Part shown: positions 19,454 through 54,114 of the stretch, in pieces
Layout of the letters: each line of letters opens with the position of its first letter
Position numbering within the stretch: the first letter of the stretch is position 1
Source of the DNA: Catajapyx aquilonaris
Taxonomy: Eukaryota
Reading direction: 5' to 3'
DNA: 64,000 nt
Assembly (NCBI GenBank): GCA_000934665.2
Contig: JYFJ02001113.1
Span: 1-64,000 of the forward strand
The notes under the pieces: generated by a model
Told to the model about the DNA's origin: nothing
The model's database searches: none
What the model saw: the letters and a program-made list of their open reading frames with translations, nothing else
Translations under genes and position numbers: made by a program

Positions 19454-19502
19454 ACGAAAATGAATTCGTCCGAGCAGCACAACACTCCCTCCATGCCCAA
19501 AG
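19454..19502 (+). CDS. rn: rotund-like TF, coding exon 3 (49-nt small exon, TKMNSSEQHNTPSMPK+G)
   Basis: Pyrimidine-rich acceptor tttttttgtatgtacttgcag| and consensus donor AAG|GTAAGT. Phase 0 in and phase 1 out, exactly bridging exon 2 (phase 0) and exon 4 (phase 1). Confidence 0.8.
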
Positions 19503-30788: not shown

Positions 30789-31048
30789 GCAACAGCCTTG
30801 AAGAAGGGCGCATGGAATCGGGGCACCAAAGTATGCCCCCTTCCTTGTACAGCGCGCCTCGGTCCAACAGCAGTAGTTCCTCTTCTCCGCCCGTGGCCAC
30901 CTCGGCGGCTCCTTCGGGGAGCATGCTAGTGGTGCCGCAGCCCATCAACGCCGCCAAAGTGTCCCCCGGAGGCCCAGGCAGTCTCTCGCATCAACCGCCT
31001 TCAGCCAACGGCACCGGCAGAAAGTACCAGTGCAAGATGTGCCCTCAG
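30789..31048 (+). CDS. rn: rotund-like TF, coding exon 4 (Ser/Pro-rich; ends with the N-half of zinc finger 1, GTGRKYQCKMCPQ)
   Basis: Acceptor ttgtcttgcag| (phase 1) and donor CAG|GTAGGA (phase 0). YQCKMCPQ joined to IFGSKADLQLHTQIH of the last exon gives a perfect C-X2-C-X12-H-X3-H finger. Confidence 0.92.
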
Positions 31049-34000
31049 GTAGGAGACAAGGTCCTTCCTCAACTTCTGTCATGCATGTCCTTCTTTTTTA
31101 TATATATATCTTCTTCTTGTGGCCTGCATGCGTGGTGTGGACTATATAGAGTGACCGCATGGTTTCGCACGGACAATTATTGGTCGGAGGGTGTAATCCA
31201 GTGGTGATTTTAGGCTTCTGTTGGCAGCCCGCAGGTAGAGAACACCTGTAATTAATCTTGCCTGACGGTTTCCCCTCGGAGGGATTCTTGCTCATGACCC
31301 GTGTCAGATTTTCTTCCGCGCTTCTTCGCCGCTGCGGGGCCAAATCGCACATTTTCAAGGGTTCGCGCCATGATTTATCACCACCTGAAAAAAAAGCCGC
31401 ATCTTAGTGAGAGCGAAAAAGAAAAGAAAAGCCGAGAATGAGTTGGAATGGCAAAAATATTTATCTCCACATTCGCTCTCTACATAGCATGGAAAAAAAC
31501 GGGCTGATTACTAGTCCAGACGACTTCTTGCGAATATGGACAACGCTCAGGTAAGTTCGGAGCATGGCGAAACTGTACGACCGACAGGAAAAAAAATTGA
31601 TTCAGAGTTTGGATCTGTTGGCGAAACGCTTGCTGTGCAGCGGCAGTCGAGAGGAAGCTGGGTGATACTTCCTTATTGCCGTGTGATGGACCCGTTCTAA
31701 ATTGCACATTTATGGCATTACATGCAGGCAGGGTGTAATCCGGGAGATGAATGCCGGCCTGATGATGAACTGAACAGGGTGTTGCAGGCTTTGCACATAT
31801 ATCGAGAGCAGGAAAAGACGTCTATCTGTTGATGGGATGGGAACAAAAAAAAAAACAAAATCTACCGAATCTGCAAGATGTGAAGGGAGAGGGAGAGCTG
31901 GCCGGACATTAATGATGATGATGACCCGGTGTCTGAGAGGGGTGGACATCAAGAAAAGGAGGGCGGAAGACAATTTGTATGGGGGCCGAAGNTCACTTTT
32001 TCATGGCGTTAAGGAGAAGGAAGAGAAGGAAGTCTCCCCTGGATCTGCCACTGAGCGAAATGAGCAGAGCGTTACGTGATGGATGGTCGTTTCCATAGCG
32101 ACAGACTGCAGTTCCAAAAAAGCTGTCGCGGCTGGGAGCTGCGTAGGAGTCGGGGTGGGTGGGTGGGGGATATATGATGTGAGGGGGGGTCACACGCACA
32201 CATGCACGTTCACATACGCTGGCGCCGGGTCCTCCCTTTGATTGCGGTTTCGCTTTGATTGGAGTTCGCTTTGGCGGAGATTTGGACCTCAGATGGTCAG
32301 ATCAGGGTGACGGTGCCGACAAGCTTCATTGATTCCTACTCTCATTTTGACGGAGGATTTTTTTTTTAAGCAGGGCTGATGATCACTGTACAGGGTGTTG
32401 GAAAGGCAAGGTTGCTCTGGGGGATGCGTACCTGCCAGGATATTTCACACCCTGCCTTTTGCAATACCGTATCTGTCCTGTACAACGAGGTGTCAGAGAG
32501 CAAGTGACATTTCTATATGAACGACTCATGTGGTCTCCAGTAGTTTTTTTCCCCAGTGTGTTATCGGTGTTGTTGCGGAACACCCTGTATCTGGAAATTG
32601 CCTAGCTGCGTACAGATGCAGGTCTGGCGGTTGGGGTTCACTGCCATGTCTTTCCCAATCATCGCTTGCCCACATCGTTGACCTCTTGCGGCGCTATAGC
32701 GTAAAAGAGATTATATGCCCAGATTTTACTGGTAAATTGGAATTGACGTCAGGTTAGGAAAAATCTGATTAGGGCTTGAAGAAAATCAGGACACATCCTG
32801 TTTCCAAGTCGCGTATAATTAATAATTACGAGTAATAAAGCATGGCCACGCACATTTGACCAAGACGCCCAGCAGCCAGCGATTAATGAATGTGCGGGAC
32901 GTGTCGGAGCGATTTTCGCCGATGGGGAATTTGACCTTGCGGAGGTGCGATTTTTTTTTCTCCCGCCATTTAGTGGCACTTTGCAGTACACAAAGGCCAT
33001 TTAGCGAAGATGTATAGTGCATCTGATAAGTGGTTATTGGTCAGCCCATTAGCATTATGGGTTTTGTTTTACCTGACAAGCCGCTAGTCGAGTGTAACTG
33101 CTGAGAGAGATTAGAAAGGAATTTCTCTCGAACGGATCCTACTCCAGTTTCGCACTGCTCTACGAGATAAATAGAGCAAAGTCTGGCTATCGATCTGGCC
33201 AACAGTGATTGTTGCAGCCTTTTTGTCACATAAATTGTTCCGGATGCATTGCTGGCCAGACCTCAGCAGTTAATGGGGGGGATGTGCAGCACTCGAAGCG
33301 GATAAAGCCCGAGTTTGTCTGGCACAGTAGACTAATAGCCAAGTCCCTGCCTTGTCAACCGGAAACTGCTCTTCCCTTACGGTAAAAAAAAAATGCTTCT
33401 GAAAACCAGGTCTTTTCGAAAAAATTTACGCGGATTTTCCCTAAATTGCAGTGCTGAGTTATCAATGGTTGGGTAGCAACCTACGGGGCTCGCGTGTGTG
33501 GATGGTTGCGAACGTACCAGGATGCGAACTCCGGTATTGTTTGGTGGGAGAGCTGGAGGATTAAAGTGCGCCATGCGGATGTTTCTGGCAGCAGTTGCCG
33601 TCTTCTTCAGCCGGCTGTCAAGTATCACTCGGGTTGTTTTAATTCGCGCTGGTGCAGTGGGGGCCAAACCCCCGAAAAAACTAGAGGGGGGGGGGGTGGG
33701 CAGGGAAGGGTTGACGGATCGCAGGGCTTGCCCTCGATGACCCCTACTTCCTGTGGCCTCTGCTAACTGGCTCAGGGCTCCTCCTACAGCCAGCAAAACC
33801 ATTGCAAGCCTGCTGGCCTGGCTGGCTGAAGGAAAAACCTGCCCTTGTTGCCACTTGTGCCGCGGGTTTTATCAGTGATGTCATGGAGAGGGCGCATCCG
33901 GCCAACAATTTGGGTCCAGTCACGTCCATTACGGGTTGGGTCTCCCCTAGAAAATAATGGTAGTTTTTGGAACCCTCTCTAGTTGGGGCTTGGTGCCTTC

Positions 34001-37000
34001 TTCCATCCCCGTAGGCCTCTCCGATTGAGGTTTCAAGGTCGGCTGGATCTCGTCCACTCCCTCATTGTGTATTGGCCAACTAAGAAACACCTGGACCGGG
34101 GGACCCATAGCCTCTCTCTCTCCTGGTCCTCCCCACCTCCCCAAAACGCCCCGTGCATCCGAAATAGGCACCTCTCTTCGGGGTCCAGCATCAGTGCTCG
34201 ACCTTGGGGAAACTCACCTCTTGCTGCCGAGTCATTCTGGTGGGAAACCGTGAGCCTCCGGGGGCTCCTGCATGCAACTTTGGTCTCAAGGCCGCCGTAA
34301 TTTCCAGCATCTTTCAAAGGGGTTCCGACTTGATTTTTCTCTGGGCTCCTACCTGCGCATACGTGCCTACCCGAATGTGTTCGTTTTCCCAGCTTGATTT
34401 GTGGAAGATCCAGTTCGTTAGCGGATGATATGATCTCTCTTACCTTCTCTCTGCCTGCCTCTCTCTGGCAACTTTGAAAATCCAGTCGACCTCCACAAGG
34501 TTTTAGCCTGGTAATTTCTGGCGCTGTTGCAATGGACCCGGTTCCTCCGCAGGAAACTCTTTTGTGTAACAGATTGGGATCTTCAATGCCGAGTGTGTAA
34601 CGTTGTAATACATCTGATTTGACCCTTGACCTCCTGTAGGTATGCTGATGGAAAATGGCCACCATTTGCTGCATGGGTCGGTGGCAGGCAGAAGCTAACT
34701 GTACCTAATTATGATCCGAGCGCGCGTAACACCAACTGAAAGCTTTAAACCAACATAAATCAAATTAGTGGCACGTATGAACCGTAAAATTACCAAGGTG
34801 CTCAGGCGAGACCTGTTCCTCCTGTATGGAGACGTGTCTTTTTGCCCGATTATGGAGAAAATAGCCCATAGTGTCGTATTTGAATGCACATAATTATACA
34901 ATGCAATTACCGACAAGGATACACAGACTACCCGTAAATTTTTGATAAAAAGCGCGTTATCTTCGGCAGAACATGATCACCTATTGTATACATAAGACTC
35001 ATCATTTTTTTTAATGTTCTTGATCGCAACCGGAACGGAAACAATGGTCAGTGAAGCAATAGGGTGCGTGGGAGCCTCCAAAAAAAATACTCATCGAAAA
35101 CGCCGGTTTTCGGTAGCACATACCAGCGGTCATACCGGGGGCCTTACATGATGAAGAAGGTCTCCTTTCTCGCGGCTTAATTATCCCCGGGTTTTCCGTT
35201 GGGCTTGTCATTTAAGGGGGGGAGTAGGTCCTCCTCGAATATTAAACTACCTTCATACCTCATAACTCATTACAGTGTGCGCAAAATTACTTTGGAGGGA
35301 GAAGGCAAAAGTGGATCCGTTGTTTGGAATTAGGGAGCTGTATCTTGATGTATGATCACCGACGCGTTAAATTATGGGGATTCACGTGACCGCCCAAAGC
35401 TCTGCGTGTCGCTCACTCCAGCTGTGTGGTGCTGCAGCTTCTGTTGGCGGCGCTGCTTTTTTGCGCACCTTCTTGCTGGAATATGCTGGAAAAAAAGGGG
35501 GGGAACCTCGCCGCTGGATCGTAATTCAGTCTTTTGACATATTGCATCATTACGCGGTTTTTTTATAGGAGGCATGTGGAGGTCCGACGTAAAATTCATT
35601 TTTAGCATGTGGATATGGTGACACTATTATAGAAAAGCGGACCGATAGGATTGGCAACCATTGCCAATCGTTGTCGCGTTCTTTATGCTCGGTGTGCCAT
35701 GACGCCCAGGCTTAATGCTTTTCTTATGGGGTACTGCTCACCCCTCGTACCGGACTTAATCGAGTGGTCTAGTGACAGGAAGTCAAGTTGACAAAATGGC
35801 GGAAATTAAGTGTCGCCTCTCCGATGCTAGCCTAGGTTGTAACAAAAAAAAAGGAGTGTGAATAATCGGGGTGGAAAAGGAGGCCCCCGGTTGGCGCAAT
35901 GCAATCGCACATTTATCACTGGCGGTAATTACACGGTGCTCCGGGATCACAAAGGGTACCACACGTAACCTGCATTACATGCGAATTGTGGAAATTGGCT
36001 CTGGAGCTGCCCGGCTCTTGTGGTCAATTTTTCTTGGAAAAATGGTGGCCCTCTCAAGGTCGAAGGCACCTCCACCAACTTGTTTTTCGGCCAGTTCCGC
36101 CGAATGCCATCACGCCCAATAGACCGAGAAGCGTCTTAACTTAGTACATCTCTGTGGCTCGCAACGTCTACTGTTTGTAACGCAGAACACATACCCCGTC
36201 AAACAATGTCGTCGTGATTAAAACGTAACATACCTGCTTGTTCGGCCGGTAGCAACTCGGCGAAACGGCCACCCCGAAATTTTTACCGGCCCGCCAAGAA
36301 TGTGGCAGACCGGTTTTTCCCGTGACATTGACACAGATGAGAACTTGACTGAAGTGCATCATTGTTACGTAAAAATCTGACTGGGGGGTGGGTGTTGCGA
36401 GATGTGTAGTCACCAGGAGATATGAGTTTAGATCCAGCTACAGGTGCGCACGTGATTCCCTCAGGGTGTGGGAAGTCCCGAGAAAAATCAAGTGACGTAA
36501 GTGCGCACACCGTATGTTAATCCAAAGCTGGAATATTACGGACAGAGCGCGGGGAAAAAAAAGCTTCATTCATCAGTTTTTTTTTTGTCCGGTAGTATAA
36601 TAGGGACCCCCCCCCCCCCCCTTTTTTTTTGGAGGGACGGGTATAGGTTTGACATTGGATCAACAAACATTCCACGGGATGTTTTTTTGTGAAGGGTAAA
36701 AGTAAAGGGGAGCGGTGTAAAAATTGCAAGGGGGTGGGGGTGGGGTAGGGTGAAAGTAATAAAAGGTACGGAGAGAGGGAGGGTGTGGAAGAGTTGCGGC
36801 GCGGGTTTGGAAGAACCGCACGAAGTTGGTTAGGAGCTGCTGCTGGTTCGGATGGAAAAAGGAGAAAAGCCGCGGGCTGCTGCGGTGCGGTCAGCGGCTG
36901 CCGTCGGCGCCATCTGAATTTTTTAAACTCTGGCCCTCTCCTATAGGGGAGGGGGTCCATGAGATAGTTGCAGCCGTTCTCTCATCCACAAGCCGAATTC

Positions 37001-37436
37001 TTCACCGTGCACTATTTAAACAAGGAGTCGATATGTAATAAAAAATACGTACGAATTTATAATATTTACATACACAACGGTTGATTGACGTGGTGGTATG
37101 GTCCGCATGCATGTAAGCCAGCTTCAGCTTGTTTTTGATTGAAAGTGACCCTGAACATAAGAAGAAAACATTGCTTATAGGGCGGGTGGCAACGAGGATC
37201 GAATCCAAGAGCAGTACTTATGCGTACTTGTCCGGCCCAAATATGGCTTGCGGCTACAGAATATTCGCACACTATTATTATGACAGTTGTGATGCATAGA
37301 AGCCTAGTTGCTATTCACGGAATCACTCTAACATGATTGTTATTTTATTTATTGTGCTAATTTTGCTGTGTATAATTTTGTGGGCAAGGTTTTTAAGAAC
37401 TGTCACATAATTCGTAGGAGAACAAACTCTGAGAAG

Positions 37437-37505
37437 GAGAGCCGGATCTGGGGATCGAACCCGGATCTTTCTCTATGTCGTACTTTAGCTTTTCTGGTCC
37501 ACTCC
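37437..37505 (-). mobile_element. Possible degenerate tRNA-derived SINE head
   Basis: The minus strand reads ...GATCCGGGTTCGATCCCCAGATCCGGC, a good B-box/T-arm. The A-box is poor and I saw no tail. Confidence 0.25.
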
Positions 37506-40500
37506 AATTTCCTGGAAGGATATACTTTTCCAGAGACAGATGGCTATGTCCCATGTGTTTAAACGCGGCTCTTGAACACCGCTTAAATTTTTTTGGGCGT
37601 AAAGAGTAAGCGCAGGAATGAATGGAGGGAACCCTGAAAACTGGACGGGAAAGGTGTACTGTACACCGGGGGAGATATCGAGCCCCTGCAGGTTGGTGTG
37701 GGAAAGTTGCATTTGTTTCAAGGCGTGATCGATACACACAGGAGAAAGAAGGGAGGGGGAAAAAAAGAGGTGGTGGGTCGCATTAACGTGTTGGAATTCC
37801 GGTGACTGTCGCTGAAGTTTGGAAGCTCCGGGGATTTTACAAATGAGAGGAGAGGCAGGGGAGCGATTCTTGCTTAAAATTCACGGAGAAGTGCTGGTAT
37901 TTAAATTTAAACCGGACATGGCTCAATTACACGCTCCGGTAGAGTAGGTCCTCCCAAGATGGCCGCTGTTGACAAAACCAAATGATGTGTGGACCCCACC
38001 GGAATCGACAAAACGGGGTCATTTCTTCCCGTAACCTTGAGCGCAGCTTGTTATTATGTGGGTGATGATTGAACCACCACAACAAATATTTTTTTGGTGG
38101 GGAATATTTGAAAGCGAAATCCTCATAATGAGATTGAAGCGAAGTTCCTGGTGGCGCCAACGGGAAATCTCTTTGGGAAGCCTTTCCCATTGCTGGAAGC
38201 GAAAATAAATAAAATCGTTTCCCAGGGATCCAGCTTGTCGCGGCGGCAGGGGGGGCACACCGGGTGGATTTTCCTTGGCACGTGCCCCACCCCCTCAATA
38301 AAAAAGGGGGCCAAATTTTTTTTCCGGGGGGGCAAGGAATTTTCTTGGGTGCTGCGAGGGCGGTCTTATTGAAAGAAATTAAATCGTGTTTGTTTTTATT
38401 TCTGCCCGCCAGCTACCTATATTGTGGGAATGGGTAGCACCTGTTGTTTCCAATTTTTTGTTGTTGTTGTCTAAACGCGAGTCAATATTTGCACGTTGTA
38501 GTCTGGGCCGACGCATCCATTTGAATGCTCTAATTTCAACTTGACGAGACTTGTGATCAACAACCCAGCTGTATGGTAATGTGGTTGTGCAGCTGGGGAA
38601 TTTATTCGCAAAGCAAGTGTCTGTGCTACTGATTCAGACCTGAAAGCAATGTTTTAAACATTTGTTTAGGACAGCCGGAATGAGGTGATATGGACGTTTG
38701 ATAGTCGCACGCCCTACTTTCGTCTAACTGTCGGCTCGGGGTACTTCCCTGTAATCGAAGAAAAGCAAGTCAGGTTTTACTTTCAGATACGGATAAATTA
38801 TACATCGCATTAAAAACACTGGGTCAATCCTGCTTCTGTAAGTTCAGCACGTGTGAATCCAGACACTGCCAGTACAAACAGGACACAAGTTTGTACGCAC
38901 TGAATTCAGACATTCAAATTAATTTAACAAACTTGCCAGCTGAGTATAGGACGAATATTGCATTTGCTATATGCAAATGTGTGTCTGTCCGATATCGACG
39001 CAAAGTGCTCCATAACCGTCAGGATAGAGACGGAGAGGCATATGGTGCGTGTCAAGGTCATCGCTCCGGCGTCGCCCAATTCGGGGGTGGGGTGGAGGGG
39101 GGTGTTGGCAACCCTGTCCTTTTCTCCCCATTTTCTTCTCTCCCGGTGCCGGATTGTTTGCAAAGGAGATTTTTGGGCGACATCCACTCCCCACCCCCGG
39201 GTGTGGAAATGGTGCACATTGAGGAAGAGCAAGGGTCGGTCGGATAGGAATCAGAAGGGGGGGTATATGTGTGTGTGTCTGCCTGCCTGCCCTAGAGGGG
39301 TGGAGGGGGGTCCTTTTTGGCCGGGGAAGCTTGGCTGCCCTGTCCCATCCACTTGTTGCACCCAAATTATTCAATCGGCGGGGCAGAGTGAGGGAATGGG
39401 GGCCTCGCAGTGTGCCATTGTGCGCCGCGGCTCTCCCCCGAGTTCTAAAATTACCGGCGCTCCTCGTTCCCACAGACCTTGCATCTGTCGGCGGCGCCAT
39501 GTTGCCGGATCGACCCAAACCTACCACCTCTACCAGAATGAACAAACCTTCCAGCTCGCTTTTTGGATCCATCCAGCTGCCATATATACCCCTCTCTCAT
39601 ACTTGGTCATCCGCGAGCAGCCTCTGGACCATTAAGAAAGAAGGGGGTCTGCACAAGTCATCACTGGCGTATCTGTTCTGTGTCTGCTCTCGCACTTTCA
39701 TTGCACACTGCGAGCCCTTTATGGTCGAGTTCAGAGAACTCGAGTGCGAGAGATATGTGAACATGTGCTGGGGAGGTCGAGGGGTCATTTTGCTAGGTTG
39801 CCTCCTTCACATATTGATGCGAAGGTTGAATATTTAGGCGTGTAAAAATTTGCTCCTCATTGGATCTGGATTTAAATGAACCGCATGGTGTGTGGCTGCA
39901 GGCTCTATTAACGTGTAGCAGTTTTCCCATTTACGATCGACCGCTTGGATTCCATGGTGCATTTGCCCCGGCTACTGTATATTCGATGCCCCGCCGATTG
40001 CGTCTGCCGAACTACCCATGCGATTGTTATTAGGCGCAGAAAACATAGACCTGCACGTTATGTAGAAATTGTCGGCTTCCGGTTTTTGAAGCAGGAGTAA
40101 GGCGGGGAAATTGAAGGGGGGGGGGGGGGGANATTCACCATCTGTTTCCACACAATGGGAACATTGTAACTTATGCTTGTTTTCATCCGGCTGCATTTGT
40201 ACAAAACTTCCCCCTATTTTTTTTTCACCCTGCTCCAACAGTTTCGGTTCTTTGAAAATTTCAACAGTATATGGCCACATTGTGATGTCGGCAACAGGGA
40301 TTCCATTTATTTTTTAAGTTTGCCGCGTTTTTTTTTCTAAATAATTCGGGGGTGGAGCAAAAGGTCGAATAATGCACACCGTGAGAGTAGCCCACGTTTG
40401 CTCTCTCTCCTGTTTAATAAATGCTGCCTTTTGTTTCCCAATGTTGCAATATTAGCACGGGAAGCTGGTGGGCCAGGAGAGGAAGAGGGGGGGTGCAATT

Positions 40501-43500
40501 ACACGCACGTTTCCGGGGCTGAAACTTAGCAGAATGTTTACCCCGTTCCTTGAGACAGGAGCTGCCTTCATGTAGGCTGCAACCATCACGCCTTCATTCC
40601 TGGCATAAAATAATTAGCCGAGCGCAGGTAGCAGCTGCTGCTGTTTTCTTGCCCATCTTCCTGGAGGGCCGATTTTGCTCTAGAAGAACCCTCAAAAAAA
40701 GAGCGTAAGTGGACACAGGCAACAATGGCAATAACTCTGAGGGAGGAACATGTGCGTCTCTCCAACGTGGCCTCCACGCGACTTGGTGTAATGACCAGGA
40801 CGGCAAAAAGTCACCGAGAGGCACCGACTTTATATTCCTTCTCCGTGTCACATCGTGTCGTGCTATATTACCCACAGAAATTAGCCTAATTTAATTAGGA
40901 GTAGGAAGGAAAGGGGGGAGGAGGAATGGAGTAGCGGGTAGGATTAAAATTCATAACAAAACTGGGAAACTTAATTACAGCGGTGGTTACAATCTGCCGT
41001 ACAGCGTGTTGTGCATAAAGAGCCAAGTGAGAGGGGGGGGGGGGGGGGNGGGGGGCAAAATGTCCGATGTAGCCAGTGGGGGTGCCTTGGTCCGGTCTCA
41101 CTTTTGCTTAATTAGACACCCGCCCAAGCCATACCGAACTTAGCGAATATATTGGCCATCCTGTATACGCACATAACTCGGCCGGTTTTCATTTGGCCTC
41201 ATATCTAATTTAGGCTTCATTTTTTTAGTACATCCAGTAAGGGAGAGAAAATGATGAAACCTCTCTCGGGAGCTCAATTTGAGATTTCTCCATATGGTCG
41301 GGGGCAAAATGGACCAAAAACTCCGGAGACTTGTGTAATTATATCCCACCCGCCCANCCCCCCCTATTTTTTTTAACGGGCCTCATTCACCGTTTTGGGG
41401 GCTAAACAATTTTTTTTCGAAGGCAAGAATAATTTTTTGCCACGTGTTCAGCGCCAGCGACTTTGGCAATAATTATGGGTTGTCGGAAGCGTAAATAAAA
41501 TAACTTCCATGATAGCTTTGTTGGTCAGTCAAGTTAAAAACTGCATGCTCGAAATACGCCGATGGAATTTTTGTTTCCGTAAAAAAAAAGCCTGTACACT
41601 CATGGGCGGAAGTTAATGAGCCTGCAATTTGGCTTAGTACTATGGGTGACTCAAAATGGGTGCACCTTGGATCTACAACCATTTTTCTTCACAGTCACTA
41701 ACCAATTCCTGCTATGAAATTTGCGAAGGGAATAATGGCTATGTGAATTATTTTACCACGTGAATTATCACCCAGTGATTTTATCTATTTTATTTGTGTC
41801 TTTATTAATAGAACTACTGTATATTTTACACTATACACTGTACAAATATATTAATATATTTGCATAGTGTATATTTTCCAGTGTCGAAAAATAAATTTAT
41901 TAATTTCTTTGACGGTTGACGTGGGTTTAACCTACGACATAGCATTCTTCTGCTGCATTTTTACTAGATAGTAGGGGCAGAATACGTATTTTTGGCGGTT
42001 CAATTTTGCATTATGCGAGGCAGAAAAGGGAAAGTTAATAATATAAGGGTTCGTAATTAAGGGGTATCCTAGAAAATGTTTCATGCTTGCGCCCCGTAAA
42101 TTTCCACCGTGAGTACAGCACCGCCGTACTTGGCACAACAACGTACGTGTGTTCGAAGCCGGTTGGGATTATACCTTCCCAGTTTCTCATCTTCTCAGCC
42201 CAACTTGACACGCTTTTTGGCAATAAATTACCCTTGTTATGAAATAATCACCTTGTACACACGGTGCCTTACCGTGTACGTGTCGGCAGTGTGGACTCGG
42301 ATTAGAGGACTTTCTCAGAGCGGAATCCTTGGCAGGCTATTTTGCATGATACGTGAGGTGCGAAGAAGCGTTTCCCCCTCACACACACGTACACACACTA
42401 AGCATCCGGCTTGTTTCTCACGCATCTTCCCACCGTACCTACACACTTGTTGAGTGTCTTTGCTGTGCGTCTCTCTCCCCCTATATTACAACCGGGTGGG
42501 TGCTTAGGCTCGATATGCAAATGAAGACTTGTATTGTCCGCCAAGCCTGGGAGTCTGGGTCTCAAGACCCCCCCATGACCCCAGGTTCCCACGATCTAGC
42601 TCAGGTGCCCTATGCATCCAGGATTAGCCCCCAAGTCCTTTTTTTAAAAGGTTGGCTGGGCTGGGGCGATGGTCCTGATGCTGTGGCAGTTTCCTACCTG
42701 GAAAAATATCTGGCCTCGCTGCCTTTCATTGGGCACGCATGAGAAAGGAGCAGTCCTTATGGCACAAGGACTTGTGCAGCCGACGGGCAAATGACAGATG
42801 GGGAAATTTTTTGGGAGGGGAGGGAGAGAGATATAATTGTCCCGGGGCGTTTATGCATGGAAAACCACAAAAGTCGCGGGGCGATATTAAGCAGCGGATG
42901 ATTGAATATTAGGGTTCCTATTTGGAGGGGAGCGTGGGAGAAAAACCAGAGACGGTGAGAGTCTCCTCAGGGGGTGCACCGAAATTTTCTGGTTGAACAT
43001 AATAATTGGGGGGCATTGTTTCAGTGTCGGTTTAATTAAATTAAGGCTGAAGTGTTGCGTGGGGTATAAGTGGGAGCGATAACATTGTTTCAACGACATC
43101 ACAATGTTTGCCGAAAATGCGGCCTCCCCGAAGCTGCTTACTTTTGTTTTATTTTTATTTTTTATGATCCCATCGACAATTAGCATGATAATTACATGGG
43201 TTTCGACATACAAGACATGGTCTGTGCACACGGTATATTTCCTAGCCAGTAGCGTAACGTATTAATTTCGCTTGCCGTACAATTGTTCAGTAGTCGCTTT
43301 TGTGTTGCTCAAAACTGACATTTCCCTGCTCTCAATAACTGCTTGCACTGTACCGTCCCGCGTCATGTTCAGGGGGAATTCATGTCCTGAACCTGACAGC
43401 TCCATCCATTTGATGCGAAACGTCAACGCCACCTTAGGCCAACAAGTTAATGATACGTTTTGAAATATGCAGTGTGGGAAATTTGTGCATGTTGGTGCAC

Positions 43501-45216
43501 ACAGGTAGTGGGGACCCAACCAGAATATGTGTAGAAAAAAAAAGGCAGGAGGACCAGGTGGTAGTTGGGGAGGTTGAGCAGCATCGACCTTGAGTGGGTT
43601 GTGTAGTAGCCAGAAGCTGTGATCAAGAGCCGGCTTCTTCCTCTCTCCGGCCGCCATCAAGGTCTCAGAAAGCAGCCAGAGAGTGCGTTAACTATCTGGC
43701 CATCGCAGCACACACACACAGTCACACACACACAAAAAAAAATCTTAGTGGGTTAGAAAAATCCAAGTACGGTGCATCACATGCGTCAACACGCTCATCT
43801 TCAGGGGTTTTTATGGGCTCAGGGGGTCATCGACTCAATTTACGACGTTCATGTGACAAACTGGAGTCGACCCTTAATGGCTGGTGCTGGCCTGCACCAG
43901 AATATATATCCGCAGCTGCTGTTTGTATGCGGTGCCCTTTTATATATTTAAAAAAATTGTCGAGATATATATGGTGCCGGGTCGGATCCTTCACGCGGAC
44001 TTGAATCACCTGACATGTATGAAGCGCACACACGCGGCGCTGGACAAGTTTCCTGGAAGCATGTTTTATTCACGGGGCTCATTTGTACCGGCGCGGAACT
44101 TCCTGAGAGAAGGCGACGAGGGAAAAAAAAAGTGATGGAGAGAAGAAAAAAAAAATTGTCGCCTAGGAAACATGGTGGAAAAAGTATGTCTCGCTAGGAT
44201 AAAACTGGGTTCACCGGTGGATGGTTTTCAATGTTAACGTATCTATTCAGACCCATCCAGACATGCACTGCAAGCGGTGCAGTATGTACGACGTAGGGTG
44301 GGGGAGAGGTAGGGTCAAAGATCGGTAACCCAGGAAACCGGTGAAACATCGATAGTCTGGATGTGCTGTACAACCCGCCAGACTGGTTCAAATATATTTT
44401 TTTTATCGGATTGCATTTAGCGAAGATCCGATTTTAGTTTATTTATAGTACAAAATACAACCGGCCAGTCCCGAGCCGTCGATTGTTTACTCCTAGATTT
44501 GACGTGTCAACTTTGATGCGGGGCGTTAATTTTAGTAAACATCTAGCGGAACCTCGCCAAAATGTCCTTCAAGCCCCGGGTTCGGATTTAGCACCGCCCG
44601 AGCTCTGCCTCGGGAACAGACCGACTCGTGCTCTCTGTACTACTTTACATACTAAATGAATTGAACTCCCCCCGCTACCCCCCACCCCACTCAGCTTCAG
44701 GCTTTAAAAAAAAAACTCTATACTCGAACATTGCCCCTCGAAACGTTTTTGTGTGTGTATGTGCGCGCGCGATTTTTTTTTTTCTCTCGCCGTACATTTC
44801 TGGCGTGTGGCGCTCAAACGGCGATAAGGCAATCGTGTTAAATTCAGAATGTGAGCAAAAACCTTGAATGGGTTACCTTGAACAATGAGTCCTCGGGGGG
44901 ACTGGAGGAGGAAGGAGTTGGGGCGGTGGGGGCGATGTGTTGTTGTTATTGTGTCTCCGCCTGCGCGCGCTAAGGTTGGCAGCTCTTTTTTTTTAGCAGG
45001 AAAAAAAAAATCGATTTTGAAACTTCTCCTGAGGGAAGGGAATCAGGATGGCCAACTATGCCAATTTTTTTCAGATACAAAATTTGCAACCAATTAGTGT
45101 GTATATATAAAAAAAAGTGCGAGTAAGAAAACTAGTATGTATTTTTTTTGTGTGTGTGTGTGTGTGCTGGAAGGCAAAGCTCGGTAGTCATACCCCCCTA
45201 CCCACCCATCCCCCTA

Positions 45217-45242
45217 GTCACGTGACGAGGCCCCGATTGGCT
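45217..45242. promoter_or_regulatory. Palindromic E-box GTCACGTGAC plus inverted CCAAT box (GATTGGCT): candidate internal promoter
   Basis: 10-bp USF/MiT-type palindrome at 45217-45226, with an NF-Y-type motif 8 bp downstream. Lies ~450 bp upstream of the roe-like exon in a GC/purine-rich region. Confidence 0.45.
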
Positions 45243-45773
45243 GGGAACCCCCAACCGTGGAAGGGGGGGTTGGTGGGGTGAAAAAAGGGGAGAGGAGGGG
45301 GCGCCCCCCAGCCGAAATGGCCCCCTTTTTTACGTCGCTTTTTTTTCTGCTGCGCCGCAGTGTGTGAGCGGAGGCCAGGCTCGAAAGAGAGAGGCAGAGA
45401 AGGCAAAAGGGGGGCTTCAGGACTAGCCAGCATTTTTTGGGGGTTGGGTGGGGGGGTTCGAAAGAGGGGGGTGGGAATAACCCCCCCTCTTGAAAGAAGA
45501 AGAAAGAAAAAAAAAAAATTAACCCGGAGAGGAGAGGGGGGGCAACCGTGGCGGGTGAAGAAGTGCAGACACGTGTGTGGCGTTACGGGAGATGGGGTGG
45601 TGGTAGTGACCTGTGTGTGAGACGACGGACAGTGTGTTATATTATTTTGGGAGCCGGTCAGTGCTACAACACTGGCGGCCACTAGCCCTCCGCATCCTCT
45701 GGTCCAGGTACAGGACCACGCTTTCAACCATCACCACCACCACCACCACGGCGGGGACCATCAACTTCATGAG

Positions 45774-45884
45774 ATGCCGCTGATGGACCCGAATGAGTGC
45801 GGCGGCTCACCGTTGGCGTATCCCAGCGAGTATCGGACGCCGTCGCCGTCGGAGACTGACCTGAAAGACCCCGGCGACCAGAAG
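45774..45884 (+). CDS. Candidate alternative first coding exon, roughened-eye (roe)-like isoform (MPLMDPNECGGSPLAYPSEYRTPSPSETDLKDPGDQK)
   Basis: GC-rich, coding-like 37 codons ending at donor AAG|GTACCA, phase 0 and in frame with the acceptor at 52876. The frame stays open upstream to 45621 and includes 7 consecutive His codons. Promoter-like elements lie upstream. Confidence 0.7.
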
Positions 45885-48800
45885 GTACCATCCAGAACCA
45901 GAGGATTTATATACACAAAAAAATATATATGTGGAAGGGGGGGGGGGGGGGTGTTTGAACCTAGATGGGGGGAGAGAGAGAGAGAGTGGGTGGGGTTGAG
46001 GGGGTAAAATGGTGCCTCCCCGGAGCCGTTTTCGGTGGTGGCTGGCGTGTGTGGAAGCCCGTCTGGGCCAAAAAACCGTTTCTCGAGGCTGAGTGGCGTG
46101 TGTCCTCTATCTGCCAAAAACTGCTGTGGACCGCCGACCGCACCGAGCGCCGCTGGTTTTTTTTTTTTATGTGTGTGTGCAGTATTTTTATTGCCATTAT
46201 GTTACCGGTTTTTGGTGGCGCGTGTGATTTTTTTGGCCGGGATCGGATAATATTAAGAGAAATGTGCGATTATGTGTGTGGTGCTGTTCGGGTACAACCG
46301 GGTGCAGTAGGCTGAATTGTGTTGGTGATGGGAGTTAATAAAAGGGGGGCTAAAAATATGAGAGCGTAATCGTATGCGCTTAAATAAATATGTTGCGAAA
46401 TCTTGTAATAAACATGTGCGATATGGGGGAGAAAGAACAACAAAAGGTTAGTGTTTTTTAAAGGCCGATGTTGCCAGTGGATGCTCACATGTTCTCACAG
46501 TTGATATCACGTGGCAAAATGCGGCATGGAGTGTTCGATCGATTTTTATTCATAAGTAATGTAATGGAATAATCGGGGAGTAGTGACGTTCACTTTTTTT
46601 TTAAAGTCTAGGCGCTAACTTTTTCTATAAATACGCGCAGACTGAATCGAGATTTAGGCTGAAGCGAATCGGAATTTTTTTGATGTCGAAGTGGGGGGGG
46701 AAAAAGTGGTGCATTGTGAGCTGAATAAAAGAGAGTGAAATTTATTTGACAATGCTCGATACTTATCTGGCCCTCCTCACCGCCCCCTAAAAAACTAGTC
46801 TTGTAATCTTACAGATTACCATGTCGCGTCACAGTATCACTATTTTAGCAGGCTATAAAAATCGGATTTGTTTGTCTCCTAATAGCTGACAAGTCACTAA
46901 ATTCTATTTAGTACCGAATCTCTTCAGCAGTTCTCTCTTGAATGAACGGAGAAGAGAGGGGAAAAAAAATATTTTTTTTCGGCCCTTCCCTCCTTTCCTC
47001 GGTGAACTTTTTTGTGGATCAATAAGGGGGTGCCCGGTCCCCGAAACCTGCGTACAGTGAAGACATGTATTATTACAGACATCGGCGTATTGTATGCATC
47101 GCCTGCAAATATATTCAGTACATGTACCCACACTCGGTGCCATATGTTGTTTACATGCGGGCTGCATAATTTTTTGTATATTGTAGTATGGTGGGGGGAA
47201 AATATTGTATGTGAATATCTCGATTGTTGGCAGCATATGGGCGTTGTCCGAATTCGCTTCCACGAAGAGCGGTGTTGCAGGGTATGGGGAAGAACCTGGG
47301 AGAGAGAAAAAAGATGGTGGATTTTTTGAGGGTGTTTGGCGTCCAGAGGCGTGCATGTGGGAAATTATGAATGCGCAAGTGGCATGAGTGTAATTGGCCC
47401 GTACCTGCTGCTCCTGGAAGAGAGCCCCGGCCATCCGCTGTAATGAAGGGCAAACACTGTGTGCACACACTACTTGCCGGGCATTCCAGTTGCCCCCAGA
47501 AAGCTTCAGGGTTGGAAATAAAAACAAGCCGGGATCCCATTGGCATCTGCACTGCGGGAACCTGATGGAAGCAGCACATTTTTTGGGGACGGGAAATTTT
47601 TGGGAGTTCCCAATTGGGTGCATGGAGGTGCATTTGGGATGGTGCATGCTGGGGGATTGGGGTGTTAAAAAAATTTTTTTTGGGAGGTATCGCCCAGACT
47701 GTTTCCTGCTGGAAGGGCGGCGATCAAAGGAATGCACCTGGAGGGACGCCAGCCTAACCCCCCCGCACTCCTCTGCCACCCATCCCCTACTACCTCCCAT
47801 TTACTTCTTTCGCCCTCCTACTACCACCACTTCTTCCTCTGGGAACAACGCTTTTTTATACTGCCTAACCGGCGAGGGTTCGAAAATCAACTCCAGTAGG
47901 TCACGTTATTTGCAAACCGTCGGTTAATTAAGTAGGGTGTCCTTAAAGCGATTATGTCAATAGGAACCAACAGGAGCCAATCAATAGCGTCATTTGAGTG
48001 AGCGCCAATGTTCATAATAGCATTATTGTCAAGGGCTGGTAAAGAGTGGGGAGATGGTTATTCGGGAAATGAAATATGGAGCGGCGAATTTGCATTCAAT
48101 TTACATGAGCGAGTGCGTGCAACAAAGCTGCTTGGGGAGGGGGGGGGGGGGCTATAATTGTTGCTATAAATGCGGTGGCATCTTGCAGTCAAGTTGTAAC
48201 CCTCCAAATTGTCCGGTATCGAACTAAAATTGTGGTGTGCAATAACCACGCCCCTTCTTTGTCTGGAAAATTATGCGGACAACCCAATTAATGAATCGAC
48301 TTGGAGGCCCCGCTATTAAGCCGATATTTACAAGATGCATAAGAATATGTAATGTGTCCAGCCGCTATTGTCTGGTAGAAAAGCCCCGTATGATTCGAAG
48401 GGTGAAGTCACTCAATAATTTGTTTCTAAGAACTGGCTTGGTGTGGCGTATGACTGTTGCCTCCAGGCGTCCAATTAAGATTTCCCAGCTCTCTTCATGC
48501 AGAAGTGGCCTTACAACTCTTCTGAGAAATTTTTGTAATACTTTCTATATATAATTCAAAAATAAATGGTATTGCTTAAAAATAAACTGTATTGCCCAAC
48601 CTGATTATTTTTGAGCTGTTTTGCATATAATATATTTGATTATTTTTTTAAAAAATGGTGTGTGTGGATATTTGGTTTTAAAAAATTCGGTGTGTATTGT
48701 GGTTAGGTAGGTAGGTGTAGGTAAAGCTTGGGGTCGACTTCCGCTGCGATGGAACAGAACAGGGGCCCTGAGCTTTGTTGCTATCACAAGCAGCATCGAA

Positions 48801-51800
48801 GAGGAGCTTGGGGGAGCCAGCAGAGCGCATCCTCCCCTTCCTCTGTCCTCCCCCAGCTCCCCCCAGTCCCTCCACCCCCTGGCTCTCCCTATGCCAACCC
48901 CCACCCCTCACCAAGGGACACCCACCCTCCCCCATCTATCACTTTGCAGTGGTGTATTCATCGCCGGTAGCAAGTCACCCTTTTTAGTCTGCGCCCCACG
49001 GTTATAACTCCCAGTTGCAAGTGTGAATGTGGATAAAGAAGCGAATAGAAACAAAGAAGAAGAAAAAAAACGCGTGAGAAGAGCTTGCTTTAAAATCACG
49101 CGCTTGAAATGAAAATTATCAAGATGTGTAGTTGATTATAATCTGATGGAGAGTGCGCAGTATATGGTAGGGTGGGTTTACATGCTGAGGTGGCGATAAT
49201 ATTTTATACCTGCCTGTACTCCCAGGAGGCTTTCATAGAATATCGTGGAAGGAACTGGCTTGTCATTCTTACATCATTGTTATCTTCGGATACAGTCCTT
49301 ATTACGGAATTGGCTTTTTAAATGTGACTCGGATGTTTGATATCGATATTGCTTTGCTTGCGTTGATATGTGACGTTTTTTCCCCCTCTTTCTTTCATGA
49401 TGACATGTTACACACATTTTTACGCTTTTGTGACGAGGCAGCAGGTTTTGTTGCGTAACTTTGCGTCACTGATGTAAGCATATATGATGCTCGGGGCAAA
49501 TGTGACGCTTCGGAGGAAGTTGATTTTTAGAGATGGATAAATGCGACATGTTCTCTTGTACATTACAATTATTGAAATTGTGCAAGTGGAAAGTAGAAAA
49601 ATTGCTAGTAAGTTACTTTTTATTGTTGTTTTTCTTCAAATGTGCACTGTAATATACGCGTGGTTTATCTGACTTCCTGTCTTTAAGAGGAAATCTTGTT
49701 CAAACATAAATTAATTATGAATTCAGGACATGCCTAAGGCATTGTAGAGTTAAATATAAATCTAGTCAGGGGTGTAATTAATGCCAATTATACCATTTTG
49801 CATGGCCTGTAATCGTAGTATTAATGGTTACCGAAGCAACCGATTAAGCGGAAGGAGAGTTGAGCATATACGACCTCTAATACTGTGTACAGTATAACGA
49901 TCTCGTGGCTACATATCTCTCAAGGTGAGATGAAGCCTACCTTTCTAACGCAATGAAGGACACACTGAAGTTGGGTCAAATTCTTTGAAGAAGTCACGAT
50001 AATAAACACTAATTTATTACAAATAGATACCAAGCTTCGAGAAGATGATTCACTTAAATTATCTCAAGGTGATAAACAGGTTAGCGAATATAGTGTATAT
50101 AAATTATTGCAAATGTTGTTGGGGATAAGATGCCACATTGAGCAAAAAGTGATCCGTTGCAAGGACAAAATGGTCATGAAATTTTAGGTAGGTAAAATAA
50201 TATTACATGTTCCTCTACAACAATTAGTGTACAGTATTTATTAAATGAATTTACCCGTGGAATTACAGGAAAACAGAGAATCGCGGCGCGCCTCATATTT
50301 TGTCTCTCACTGTAGCCTAATGGAAGACATGTTCTCATGAAGAAGGACAAAAATTCACGAGAGGAATCCTGCTGTATATACGCGGGTTAGATTGACATTG
50401 CACTCATTTCACGAATAGCCATAGTCCTGTTGCTGCACTGACGTGGTACTTCGGAGTTCTTGGATGCCTTGTCTGAATGAATGAGACTGAAACGACAGTA
50501 ATTATTACTTTTCAAACTCTGTTCTCGTAGTATTTGCATGCAAAGTGATGTCCTCTGCACAATTTTCACTCTGCTACCCTTTGGGCACACTCACCCAAAC
50601 GAAAACGGAGTGTTGTACCTCCCTCCCACCAGCATCAAATAATGTACTGGCACTTCCAATTATCCGTACGTAATTGTACGTCGTCACTGGCAGATCGTAA
50701 AAACCACCCAAGTCGGCCGTGAATAAGACAGCGCATGCTATACGTACGCAATTTTAACAAAATATCATCCGACTGTTGACCGGTCAGAGTGAACTATTGA
50801 CGTGACTGACAAGTCAGTGGCATAATGATACACTATCTAAGAGTATTTTAATTGCCACAGTCAACAAGCTCGTGTAAGAGAAAAAAAAACGTGAATGTCG
50901 TAACTATTTGACAGACTATTACAAACATTTAAGATGGCACCGGCAGCCATATATAGTTTTGAGATAAAAAGAAGCGGGATTATTGGGATGGCCTGAATTA
51001 GCTGTATTAATTTCTGATGGTTTCATTATCAGTGGTTCGTCTGTACACGCTCGGAAATTTGATTGCTGGAATTTATTTCTTGAACTATCCGCACTTAGTC
51101 TGTGCATCACCGTTGAAATATGAACGCGTCTAACTACAATGTGGATCGTCGAAATTAAAGTTAGAATTAATTAGCCCAACTCTTCGTACTGACCCTCTGC
51201 CGACGCAAATCATTATTGTCAGATATTCTTCAATCACTTAAAGAGTACCTGAGCTGCACAGGCATATAGAGACATCCTTGAATAATGCATCTCCGCCATG
51301 CAGCCATGCAGTGGAGAATTGCATCCCGGCAGGATGCACCGACGCACTTTGAGCGCGTGGTCGTCGACTGTTACGCAATGTACAGGCGCGGGGGGTTGTA
51401 GAGACATAAGTGTGAGTGTATATAGACAGCGACAGTTGTGTGTCGGTGGTGGGTGGGGGAAGGCAGGGAGGGAAGGCTTCCATTCCCTCCCCTAGTAGTT
51501 TGGGTGCATGGAGGCAGGGACAATGCATCCTGCAGCGACTGCGCTGCCCCATATTTCATGGGGCTGCGATCAATAAAAGGCTCGTTTGTAGGCAGAGCCG
51601 GCCAAGATGACTCCCATCCTTGAAGTGCTGCTAGTTGGGGGCTTCAGAGAGGGCAAAACGCTCAAATTGTTTCTAGGCGGTGCCTCTCCCACCCCCCGGC
51701 TAAGAATAATCACAAATTGGTGCATCATGGCGCGCAATGATGATTGTTTTTGTGGGTTTTTTTTGCGCGCGACTCCCGTAGTTTCATCAGAGTTTACGCC

Positions 51801-52875
51801 ATCGTTTCATTGATAAACGGACGGGAACTTCTATATCGGTCGCCGATGGTTGTGACTCCATGTTTAGTGTGCAAGGTTCAAGGTTGGTCCTTTGTACTAA
51901 CCTCGCGATATCGTTCGTAATCTGTGTGGCAGCGTCTGCTGCGGTGGTTGCTGTTTTTCAGGACGTCTGAATTTCGAACCTGCGACGAAACCGGACCTTT
52001 GTATACACACGAGTCGATGTATCGGCTAGGGTCGGACCTTGTTGGAGCATAGGGAAATGCGATTTAATAATTCAAGTACCTGTAAACTGTGCAGACTGTA
52101 AGCATTGCGTTGAATAGTTGATATACATATATAGGCGTATATACTTGAGCATGTGCCTTGTGGGAAATGGGTAGGGGGGAAAAAAAAGCTGGCAGACGAA
52201 ACTTGGCGTAGCATTTTTTTGGGTAGGAGTGTGGATCTGATGGCCAAGACATTGCAATATTGTATACTTGAGCCTAGAGTTTGAATCATTTCTGCATACG
52301 TTCTGCGCACCCCCCACTGAGAGTGGGCTCTGATGCATGTTACTCCCTTTTCCCTATGTAGCTTGTCTAGTTGGTACTTCTTGTATTTCGTCTCTCTCTG
52401 ATGGAAAATTGTGATGTCCAGGAATGACGGTAGCAACTAAGTAAAAATATGCAAAAAAAAGAAAAGAAAAGCACCACTTCCTTGGCTGTGACAGGTTGAT
52501 GAGCCAGTAGAGATGTGGAGAGAGCTCTTGGTGTAGACTTGTCTGATTGGCAGTGTATCATCCTGATAGAAAACCAAAAGGCAGTCGTTTTGCATGACGC
52601 GCGGGCCCAGACCTGTGTGATGTACAGTCTTTGACAGACTCCCGAGTGTGGCCACGGAATGTAACGAAAAAAGAGGAGAGGGCACTGCGAGCAAATTGAT
52701 CGGTCTGATGACACACAAGTAGTGCCCTCCCGTTTTGTGTAGCTAGCAAAAATGGGGAGTCTTGTCACTTGTTTTATGATCTTATGCAAGTTATATTATT
52801 CTTATATTCTTATATAATCCGGATATTGCTATGAAACCGGGGCACTCATTCCCATCTCTTCTGTGCTCCTTGCAG

Positions 52876-54114
52876 ATATTCGGCTCGAAGGCAGACCTGC
52901 AGCTGCACACCCAGATCCACATGCGCGAGGCCAAGCCGTACAAGTGCTCGCAGTGCAGCAAGGCGTTCGCCAACAGCTCGTACCTGTCGCAGCACACGCG
53001 CATCCACCTGGGCATAAAGCCTTACCGCTGCGAGATCTGCCAGCGAAAGTTCACGCAGCTGAGCCACCTGCAGCAGCACATCCGCACGCACACGGGCGAC
53101 AAACCCTACAAGTGCCGGCACCCGGGCTGCAGCAAGGCCTTCTCGCAGCTGAGCAACCTGCAGAGCCACTCGCGATGCCACCAAACCGACAAGCCCTACA
53201 AGTGCAACTCGTGCTACAAGTGCTTCTCAGACGAGCCCTCCCTGCTGGAGCACATCCCTAAGCACAAGGAGTCCAAGCACCTCAAGACGCACATATGCCA
53301 GTACTGCGGAAAGTCCTACACGCAGGAGACCTACCTGACCAAGCACATGCAGAAGCACGCAGAGAGGACGGACAAGAGGCCGCCCATCTCTGGAGCAGCG
53401 GCGGCCGCGGCTGCTGCGGCTGCTGCGGCAGCGGCGGCGCTTAGGAACGACGCGGCGCCCTACTGGTCCAGTAAAGCGTCGACGGCGGCGGCGGTGGCGG
53501 CGGCCGCGGCTGCCGCTGCCGCCGAGAGTGGGGGCAGTGGCGGGAGTGGACTGGACGCCATGCACCACGACGGACGCGTCTCGGCCGAGTCCTGCCTACA
53601 ACAACAGCAACAGCAGCAACAGCAGCAGCAGAGCAACATGTCGGAGCACCAGCACGGTAGGAGTGCGGGTCCGGGGAGTGGGAACAGCAGTGGCGGGGGA
53701 GGAGGAAGCAGTGGCAGTGGTGGTGGACTGTTGGGCCAGGGGCGAGACCCTATGGACCCCAGGAACCTGGGAGGTGAGGACCTGCGGCACCACCTTTCCC
53801 CGGCGGGACAGATGCCCTACGAGGCCATCGCCACCACCAAGACCAGCTCGGCCTTCACCCCCATCCAGTCCAGCAGCATGCTGCCCATCTCGACCTCCCA
53901 GCTGGGCATGCCCACTTCCTCCAGAGCATACATCCCATACGAACCCCTCTCCTTCCCAAAGACCTCCTCGCAAGTGGCGGCAGCCATGGATATGAAACCA
54001 TCCGCCAACACCTTCCCCAACCAGCTCATCTCGCTGCACCAGATCAGGAACTATGCACACCAGCCTTCTATGGCCAGCGAGCACCTCCTCGGACTCAAGG
54101 AAAAGGGCCAATAA
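52876..54114 (+). CDS. rn: rotund-like TF, terminal coding exon: C-half of finger 1, five complete C2H2 fingers (to 53358), poly-Ala/poly-Gln/Gly-Ser tracts and a C-terminal FPNQLISLHQIRNYA motif
   Basis: Acceptor ctgtgctccttgcag|ATA, stop TAA at 54112-54114. The finger array (YKCSQCSKAFANSSYLSQHTRIH...ICQYCGKSYTQETYLTKHMQKH, TGDKPY-type linkers) is of the rotund/squeeze/LIN-29 type. SDEPSLLEHIPKHKESK and HAERTDKRPPI match rotund as I recall it. Strong GC3 bias. The ORF-track ATG at 52831 is intronic. Confidence 0.96.
   Translation: MFGSKADLQLHTQIHMREAKPYKCSQCSKAFANSSYLSQHTRIHLGIKPYRCEICQRKFTQLSHLQQHIRTHTGDKPYKCRHPGCSKAFSQLSNLQSHSRCHQTDKPYKCNSCYKCFSDEPSLLEHIPKHKESKHLKTHICQYCGKSYTQETYLTKHMQKHAERTDKRPPISGAAAAAAAAAAAAAAALRNDAAPYWSSKASTAAAVAAAAAAAAAESGGSGGSGLDAMHHDGRVSAESCLQQQQQQQQQQQSNMSEHQHGRSAGPGSGNSSGGGGGSSGSGGGLLGQGRDPMDPRNLGGEDLRHHLSPAGQMPYEAIATTKTSSAFTPIQSSSMLPISTSQLGMPTSSRAYIPYEPLSFPKTSSQVAAAMDMKPSANTFPNQLISLHQIRNYAHQPSMASEHLLGLKEKGQ

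Follow-up and report, generated by a model that had tools for sequence, protein, structure and literature searches.

The first 64,000 nucleotides (nt) of contig JYFJ02001113.1 from Catajapyx aquilonaris (GenBank assembly GCA_000934665.2), referred to here as the window, cover the 3′ two thirds of an arthropod rotund (rn) orthologue, a gene whose zinc finger 1 is cut in two by a long intron. This intron (positions 31049–52875, plus strand) is 21,827 nt long, has phase 0 at both ends, and divides the Cys pair of finger 1 from its His pair. An open reading frame (ORF) of 37 codons within it, at 45774–45884, may be an alternative first exon with its own internal promoter, spliced to the last exon at 52876. 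We assign this reading a probability of about 0.45; it was inferred from base composition, from a borderline resemblance to alternative exons of springtails, and from the known habit of the gene family. That the candidate is an alternative exon in some form, either a first exon or an internal or cassette exon, is fairly plausible.

In the proposed mechanism, the Rn-type messenger RNA (mRNA) joins the end of exon 4 at 31048 to 52876, giving a canonical finger 1 and six fingers. An internal promoter in the 21.8-kb intron would instead make the 37-codon ORF the 5′ coding exon of a second transcript, spliced to the same acceptor. Its product of about 449 residues (37 + 412) would have a different N-terminus, an orphan His half-finger unable to bind zinc, and five intact fingers. 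Promoter choice would then set whether the six- or the five-finger isoform is made, and the choice of isoform could conceivably alter DNA-binding specificity; for Rn, a T-rich site is described in PMC3694829.

The two halves of finger 1 can be read directly at the exon ends. Exon 4 closes at 31048 with GGC AGA AAG TAC CAG TGC AAG ATG TGC CCT CAG, followed by GTAGGAGACAAGGT, so that its peptide ends in ...GTGRKYQCKMCPQ (...GRKYQCKMCPQ). The 3′ end of the intron reads ...CTCCTTGCAG, reaching 52875 with ...CTCTTCTGTGCTCCTTGCAG; behind the acceptor TTGCAG, the last exon opens at 52876 with ATA TTC GGC TCG AAG, i.e., IFGSKADLQLHTQIH. When joined, these parts form Y-Q-C-KM-C-PQIFGSKADLQL-H-TQI-H, a canonical C-X2-C-X12-H-X3-H finger in which the usual F and L are present. 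As the exon ends show, a long mRNA must connect 31048 to 52876 to build finger 1 and would thereby encode a six-finger protein.

Homologous proteins agree with this arrangement. The homologue set consists of the best 120 database matches of the last-exon product and underlies all counts out of 120 as well as the tblastn searches and junction classes below. In 41/120 homologues, from an onychophoran, chelicerates, crustaceans, and insects, ...KYQCKMCPQ is continuous with IFGSKADLQLHTQIH, i.e., a CxxCxx motif directly precedes IFGSK in a six-finger protein. Because these homologues read uninterrupted across the junction, 31048–52876 is taken as a true splice, and the claim of the initial annotation that two Cys end exon 4 and two His open the last exon holds. 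Isoform-specific sequence diverges exactly after CPQ and before IFGSK, which indicates that the intron position is conserved.

The remaining homologues vary at this junction. Between the Cys pair and IFGSK, 1–3 extra residues are found in 6/120 (PQVGK, PQHGK, PQVG, PQVS) and a longer insert in 10/120. The Cys pair is missing from three further classes: 25/120 have an N-terminus of at least 60 residues that ends exactly at the IFGSK junction, 3/120 have one of 31–59 residues (springtail-type short forms), and 23/120 have at most 30 leading residues and are mostly truncated or intron-derived models. The class of 25 is mostly insect Roe-type, although it includes the likely artefactual models P0011 (Petrolisthes) and P0038 (a mollusc). 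The junction motif itself is absent from 12/120, which begin downstream or have diverged.

Several of the inserts are cassettes at the Cys/His junction, of 19 residues in Cherax, 5 in Macrobrachium, and 9–10 in two beetles. A cassette of 26–28 residues, VRGRK(R/K)G...W(T/P)G(I/V)DH(G/N)NPE, is common to a stick insect, a cricket, a mayfly, and a termite (P0022, P0027, P0030, and P0021), and the termite model places it after a Roe-type exon; tblastn with the homologues revealed no counterpart of it in the window. In the sandfly model P0080, ...CKMCPQ is joined directly to Roe-type sequence. An mRNA that reaches 52876 from elsewhere than exon 4, or with added residues in between, would encode only the His half of finger 1, which should be zinc-incompetent, and would leave five fingers. 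Database models from many arthropods show this outcome, reached by one of three routes: an alternative first exon, a cassette, or a slightly shifted donor. A possible shifted donor also lies in the window, where the stretch 31049–31060 (plus strand), GTAGGAGACAAG, is followed by GT at 31061. Its use would insert VGDK into finger 1, changing the spacing from X12 to X16.

The candidate alternative coding exon (45774–45884, plus strand), with the translation MPLMDPNECGGSPLAYPSEYRTPSPSETDLKDPGDQK, runs from an ATG with G at −3 to the donor AAG/GTACCA, with GT at 45885. Its 37 codons are open and end in phase 0, which is compatible with the acceptor at 52876. The coding-like, in-frame ORF proposed in the initial annotation is thus present as described. 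Its GC content at third codon positions (GC3) is 0.84; the values for the three positions (GC1/2/3) are 0.59/0.51/0.84. Among the known exons, GC3 is 0.69–0.73 in exons 1, 2, and 4, 0.92 in the finger block, and 0.63 in the tail. In comparison, the 37 codons after the candidate donor have a GC3 of 0.46.

This composition was compared with a background of open 37-codon windows on both strands, known exons left out. Only 2 of 27,018 such windows have a GC3 of at least 0.84, and the GC3 excess is equalled in 76. The plus strand of the intron holds 256 candidates of at least 20 codons that run from an ATG to a phase-0 GT, among which the candidate has the highest GC3; the next unrelated one reaches 0.68. 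The ORF-plus-donor structure alone is therefore no more than chance gives, and the codon-position composition of the candidate exceeds chance. Observed/expected CpG ratios at 45.2–45.9 kb are not distinctive (0.59–0.81, against a median of 0.80).

The peptide resembles the alternative N-termini of three springtail-type proteins, which read up to the junction MMALVDSNNHLEPYRASMLNGLHDVMSNGDDK in P0016, ...MALVDSNNSVESYRSTVMNGLQEATSNDDK in P0031 (Orchesella cincta), and ...MALVDANNHDGYRTNSIMNGNGLHDGSNEDK in P0046. Eight columns are common to the candidate and all three forms (M1, L3, D5, N7, Y20, R21, L30, and D35), and all four peptides end in ...D-x-K at the donor. The resemblance was ranked within a pool of 514 ATG...GT peptides of 28–46 residues from both strands of the whole window. 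By global alignment with references trimmed at the shared Met, the candidate took rank 1/514, with a mean score of 19.3 against 5.3 for the next independent peptide (shuffle p 0.0004). In a semi-global mode, anchored at the candidate ATG and at the junction with the N-terminal overhang of the reference free, it took rank 1/514 for P0016 (shuffle p 0.002), rank 1 for P0046 (p 0.004), and rank 3 for P0031 (p 0.05). Junk intron-derived N-termini, used as controls in the same mode, gave ranks of 288, 456, and 508, and shuffling gave no significance for most of the long insect Roe-type references. These results are at most suggestive of conservation between the candidate peptide and springtail-type alternative N-termini.

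Many observations weigh against the candidate being a first exon. The springtail resemblance was noticed by eye before the alignment tests were run. Without trimming, global alignment was weaker, with rank 1 (p 0.02) for P0016, rank 4 (p 0.06) for P0046, and rank 48 (p 0.52) for P0031. The semi-global test involved 31 references, so its best p of 0.002 becomes borderline after correction (~0.06). Furthermore, the positives P0016, P0031, and P0046 represent one lineage, closest to springtail proteins, and P0125 is also springtail-like. A profile search with the candidate and the three springtail N-termini returned, among 24 candidates, only those three and P0125, and no bridging lineage; P0125 consists of a springtail-like exon followed by an intron read-through that opens with a GTN codon. 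A region-limited search with residues 1–40 of P0016 found only P0016 itself among 2 candidates.

Standard searches point in the same direction. Three Roe-type hidden Markov models (HMMs) were built for the springtail short type, the insect tail (...TPSTPPTP...EEK), and the insect start (MLLENN..YSHLQRSIDTLRSL), with expectation values (E) up to 50 accepted for the first two and up to 20 for the start. None of the three picks out the candidate from the 2,712 six-frame ORFs of the window, and applied to it directly they give about 0 bits. Their best match in the window, 49778–49894 (plus strand; E 0.14), was rejected as AT-rich and lacking a donor. The 120 homologues gave no tblastn match at 45774–45884 with E ≤ 1. 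The frame of the candidate is open upstream to 45621, and blastp of this 88-residue frame against the homologues matched nothing but low-complexity sequence lying away from the junction, most strongly residues 98–138 of P0100 (E 1.5e-05 in the 120-protein database). A phmmer search of the 37 residues against 1.84 billion representative proteins returned a single match, the unrelated P0124, which was rejected as a relative since it is an 820-residue tandem-repeat protein whose score sums 6 stretches.

The signals around the candidate are also unfavorable. The donor AAG/GTACCA is weak, matching 6/9 consensus positions without +4A and +5G, and 34 of the 256 intron candidates match at least 6/9. 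An upstream ORF of 4 codons is opened by another ATG, which lies out of frame at 45769, 5 nt before the candidate start. An initiator-like TCAGTG at 45658 and a TATA-like run at 45638, found by eye, are not canonically spaced, and chance alone would be expected to produce matches of this kind. The codon-usage log-odds score of the exact candidate exon is 9.4 bits, below the 11.7–21.2 bits of exons 2 and 4. The same scan gives 19.4 bits to C-rich non-coding sequence at 48801–48911 and 14.1 bits to 47717–47827; since C-rich low-complexity stretches score like real exons, it is not specific.

Alternatively, there may be no exon here, the ORF being a chance open frame that meets a chance GT in a GC-rich patch, with only the six-finger Rn-type mRNA crossing the intron. 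This explanation has a substantial, if clearly less than even, chance of being correct. The abundance of structurally equivalent candidates, the negative outcome of every standard homology test, and the weak donor all agree with it. The 44–46 kb region is, moreover, the most GC-rich part of the intron (0.507), and its runs of G and C raise GC in every frame. In addition, among the 120 homologues, the N-termini without the Cys pair that stop at the junction and look neither truncated nor intron-derived come from hexapods or springtail-like records, and the tree described below does not put the window inside insects. However, GC is in excess specifically at position 3 of the codons in the proposed frame and this excess ends at the donor, the GC3 level is almost unmatched in the background windows, and for two of the springtail alternative exons the peptide is the best of 514, far above the junk controls. 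The rn/roe-like architecture proposed in the initial annotation is upheld in part: the gene identity, the split finger, and the general idea fit the family, but the specific exon stands on composition and a borderline anchored similarity, with standard searches negative.

The exon could also be real but internal, an explanation that we consider improbable. It would be entered at an acceptor at 45707 or 45713 and serve either as an in-frame cassette of 59 or 57 codons or, in an alternative transcript, as a second exon behind a leader located further upstream. As a cassette, it would place about 59 residues between the Cys and His pairs, disabling finger 1 while keeping the Rn N-terminus. The frame, open from 45621, would allow this, and a pyrimidine-rich run (CCCTCCGCATCCTCTGGTCCAG) precedes possible acceptor AGs at 45706–07 and 45712–13, each of which has phase 0 relative to both exon 4 and the last exon. 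The junction inserts of other arthropod models, including the 10/120 with a longer insert, and the sandfly model P0080 provide precedents. Yet the in-frame stretch 5′ of the ATG (45708–45773, plus strand), which would be either the 5′ untranslated region or the 5′ part of a cassette exon, lacks an independent coding signal. Its 22 codons are mostly a (CAC)7 microsatellite (45728–45750), in frame with the candidate ATG and potentially encoding His7, and its GC1/2/3 is 0.91/0.14/0.68. Because the run produces a period-3 signal on both strands, it gives no coding evidence for the upstream stretch. Furthermore, the 51 open codons upstream of the ATG are not unusual at the local GC content, and the springtail resemblance begins exactly at the Met.

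An upstream Roe-type leader was not seen either: the HMMs gave none, and the insect-leader regular expression ME.R..YR matched only an ORF at 19168–19230 (plus strand), MEGRKESYRGIQLK... (MEGRKESYRG). This ORF resembles MEGRLIEYRP and MEGRLEYRS, and about 0.6 loose chance matches are expected by estimate. It is probably a chance match and was rejected as an insect Roe leader, since it lacks an in-phase donor, runs into a stop, and is located 5′ of exons 3–4. Finally, it is very improbable that the coding-like patch belongs to something else, e.g., a transposable-element fragment or part of a different gene lying within the intron: long ORFs do occur there (46904–47800, minus strand, 298 residues; 38928–39635, plus strand, 235 residues; 34033–34704, minus strand, 223 residues), but the tested intron ORFs and the 88-residue frame have no Pfam match at E ≤ 0.01, the intron contains no direct or inverted repeat of at least 40 nt, and phmmer gives no relative of the 37-residue peptide.

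The identity of the gene is well supported by its last coding exon (52876–54115, plus strand; 412 codons and the stop TAA at 54113–54115). In this exon, the His half of finger 1 is followed by five complete C2H2 fingers, a low-complexity Ala/Gln/Gly-rich tail, and the C-terminal FPNQLISLHQIRNYA. A database search with its product scored 7999 candidates, of which 1095 proteins had E ≤ 0.001, and the best named matches are annotated as 'zinc finger protein rotund-like', e.g., that of Tachypleus (E 2.6e-141). Named rotund-like proteins from horseshoe crab, crabs, lobster, crayfish, centipede, and Artemia are 58–64% identical over the entire exon (Portunus, 64% across 100% of it), and the finger block is 84–96% identical to named rotund proteins. 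Since no match exceeds ~64% over the full length, neither Catajapyx aquilonaris nor a near relative is present in the searched database. Pfam assigns zf-C2H2 (5.3e-22) and zf-H2C2_2 (1.8e-24) to the last-exon product, with three zf-C2H2 stretches in it, three in the short-form protein, and four in the six-finger homologue P0006.

The motif FPNQLISLHQIRNYA, at residues 384–393 of the last-exon product (window positions 54020–54070), occurs in 102/120 homologues, from the onychophoran to insects, and may be a family-defining motif. A C-terminal region of LIN-29 and Rn is the docking site for NAB/MAB-10 co-factors. Judged by homology, the gene is an orthologue of the rotund/squeeze/LIN-29/ZNF362-384 (ZFAM4) family, namely arthropod rotund. 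A quick tree did not resolve the position of the window, which lies outside three supported clades, those of the malacostracans (99), the insects (97), and the arachnids together with horseshoe crabs (98); its lineage by this tree is arthropod, probably pancrustacean.

Upstream of the split finger, tblastn with the homologues located four Rn-type coding exons on the plus strand. Exon 1 (approximately 10508–10600) begins at a homologue-matched Met and has a donor G/GTAAGA near 10601; it drew 5 matches (10508–10606, best E 6.7e-07). Exon 2 (17112–17288, ends approximate) drew 37 matches (17082–17294, best E 5.9e-16). A probable exon 3 (19433–19502), with the donor AAG/GTAAGT at 19503, has weak support from 4 matches (19433–19504, E 0.07–0.28). 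Exon 4 (30789–31048), which ends with the Cys pair of finger 1, lies between the acceptor ...GTCTTGCAG/G and the donor CAG/GTAGGA; 59 matches cover it (30749–31075, best E 8.6e-19), and blastp of its peptide reaches E values down to 3e-31. Three exons, the third of them weak, thus precede it, and the designation 'exon 4' in the initial annotation was right; the rotund identity given there is likewise borne out by the database matches, these exon placements, and the junction classes.

Some further features of the intron and the assembly were observed. The model P0008, from the centipede Strigamia, continues past the exon 4 end into the intron as PQVGDN.... The last 24 nt of the window intron (52852–52875) translate as PSLLCSLQ, the same 8 residues that precede IFGSK in this read-through model (...LIHPSLLCSLQ/IFGSK). 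Judged by this identity, the pyrimidine-rich 3′ splice region (TCTCTTCTGTGCTCCTTGCAG) may be strongly conserved, a feature that regulated acceptors often show. Single N bases are present at 3481, 31992, 40132, 41049, 41357, and 62175, a hint of assembly uncertainty in homopolymers. The flanks of the candidate exon (45200–45560 and 45920–46000) contain long runs of G, C, and A, e.g., G14 at ~45934.

The regulation of appendage patterning and developmental timing is a conserved role of Rotund, LIN-29, and ZNF362/384 proteins. According to St Pierre et al. 2002, Rn and Roe reportedly have non-overlapping expression and distinct activity in Drosophila. If the short isoform is real in Catajapyx, internal-promoter control of rotund would reach beyond insects and nematodes. 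The long and short proteins would then differ both in their N-terminus and in whether finger 1 can fold, which would offer a concrete and testable explanation for the non-interchangeability of Rn and Roe. Should the exon be unused, what is left is an ordinary annotation fact, a conserved phase-0 intron that splits finger 1. A broader proposal, which we regard as unlikely in its entirety, is that the Cys/His intron is an old arthropod-wide toggle that, in many lineages, disables finger 1 through an internal promoter (Roe-type and springtail-type first exons), cassettes, or shifted donors adding 1–3 residues while five fingers are kept. In this proposal, a short first exon of the Met-L-x-D-x-N type would extend beyond springtails and predate the long insect Roe leader, and the difference between six and five fingers would contribute to the reported non-interchangeable activities of Rn and Roe.

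Among known systems, the springtail-type rotund short forms (Orchesella cincta P0031, and P0016, P0046, and P0125) are similar in layout to the candidate: they are Met-initiated, about 30 residues long, and end in ...DDK or ...EDK directly before IFxSKADLQLH. They share with it M, L, D, and N at positions 1, 3, 5, and 7, followed by YR and the D-x-K end. They differ in that identity to the candidate is only 31–43%, over an alignment with an 8-residue gap, and the match is significant in end-anchored alignment only, being undetected by local HMM scoring. In the fly relatives Lucilia and Glossina, a Roe-type N-terminus without the Cys pair ends just before IF(T/G)SKADLQLH, where the window candidate would end. 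Insect Roe N-termini are, however, 130–300 residues long compared with 37 for the candidate, and the HMMs did not find the insect Roe motifs (YSHLQRSIDTLRSL and TPSTPPTP...EEK) anywhere in the window.

Finger number has its own parallels within the family. Nmp4/CIZ isoforms presumably differ in finger number by alternative splicing. The human members ZNF362 and ZNF384 (CIZ, Nmp4) of the ZFAM4 family have one finger more than the five-finger members, according to the text extracts consulted (PMC2889900). In the corresponding extracts, Rn and planthopper NlRn, the latter with a two-exon ORF of 139 + 1139 bp, are described as five-finger proteins (PMC2889900, PMC10338296). Neither a sixth, split finger of Rn nor a half-finger difference between its isoforms is mentioned in the extracts that made up the literature searched, a scope outside which St Pierre et al. 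2002 lies.

C. elegans LIN-29 belongs to the orthologous family, as stated in extracts of PMC2889900. Extracts of PMC7105380 assign lin-29b a putative promoter within the intron that separates exons 4 and 5; the short isoform lacks the N-terminal 142 residues of the long one. According to the same extracts, the isoforms differ by this N-terminal extension only, and that difference is not behind their functional differences, which follow the expression pattern; the extracts contain no statement of a split finger (PMC7105380). Drosophila rn, a member of the same gene family as the window gene, produces isoforms E/F (Rn) and C (Roe), which have the 3′ zinc-finger exon(s) in common, with roe transcribed from a different promoter, as given in extracts of PMC4683652, PMC2889900, and PMC10338296. 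The roe promoter is described there as internal (PMC4683652, PMC2889900). With the candidate exon, the window gene would likewise place different 5′ exons on common zinc-finger sequence, although the Drosophila isoforms are said in the extracts to share the last two exons, whereas those of the window would share one. Overall, Drosophila rn/roe and C. elegans lin-29a/b already provide known examples of this architecture, and what would be modestly new in Catajapyx is that the choice of isoform decides whether finger 1 exists.

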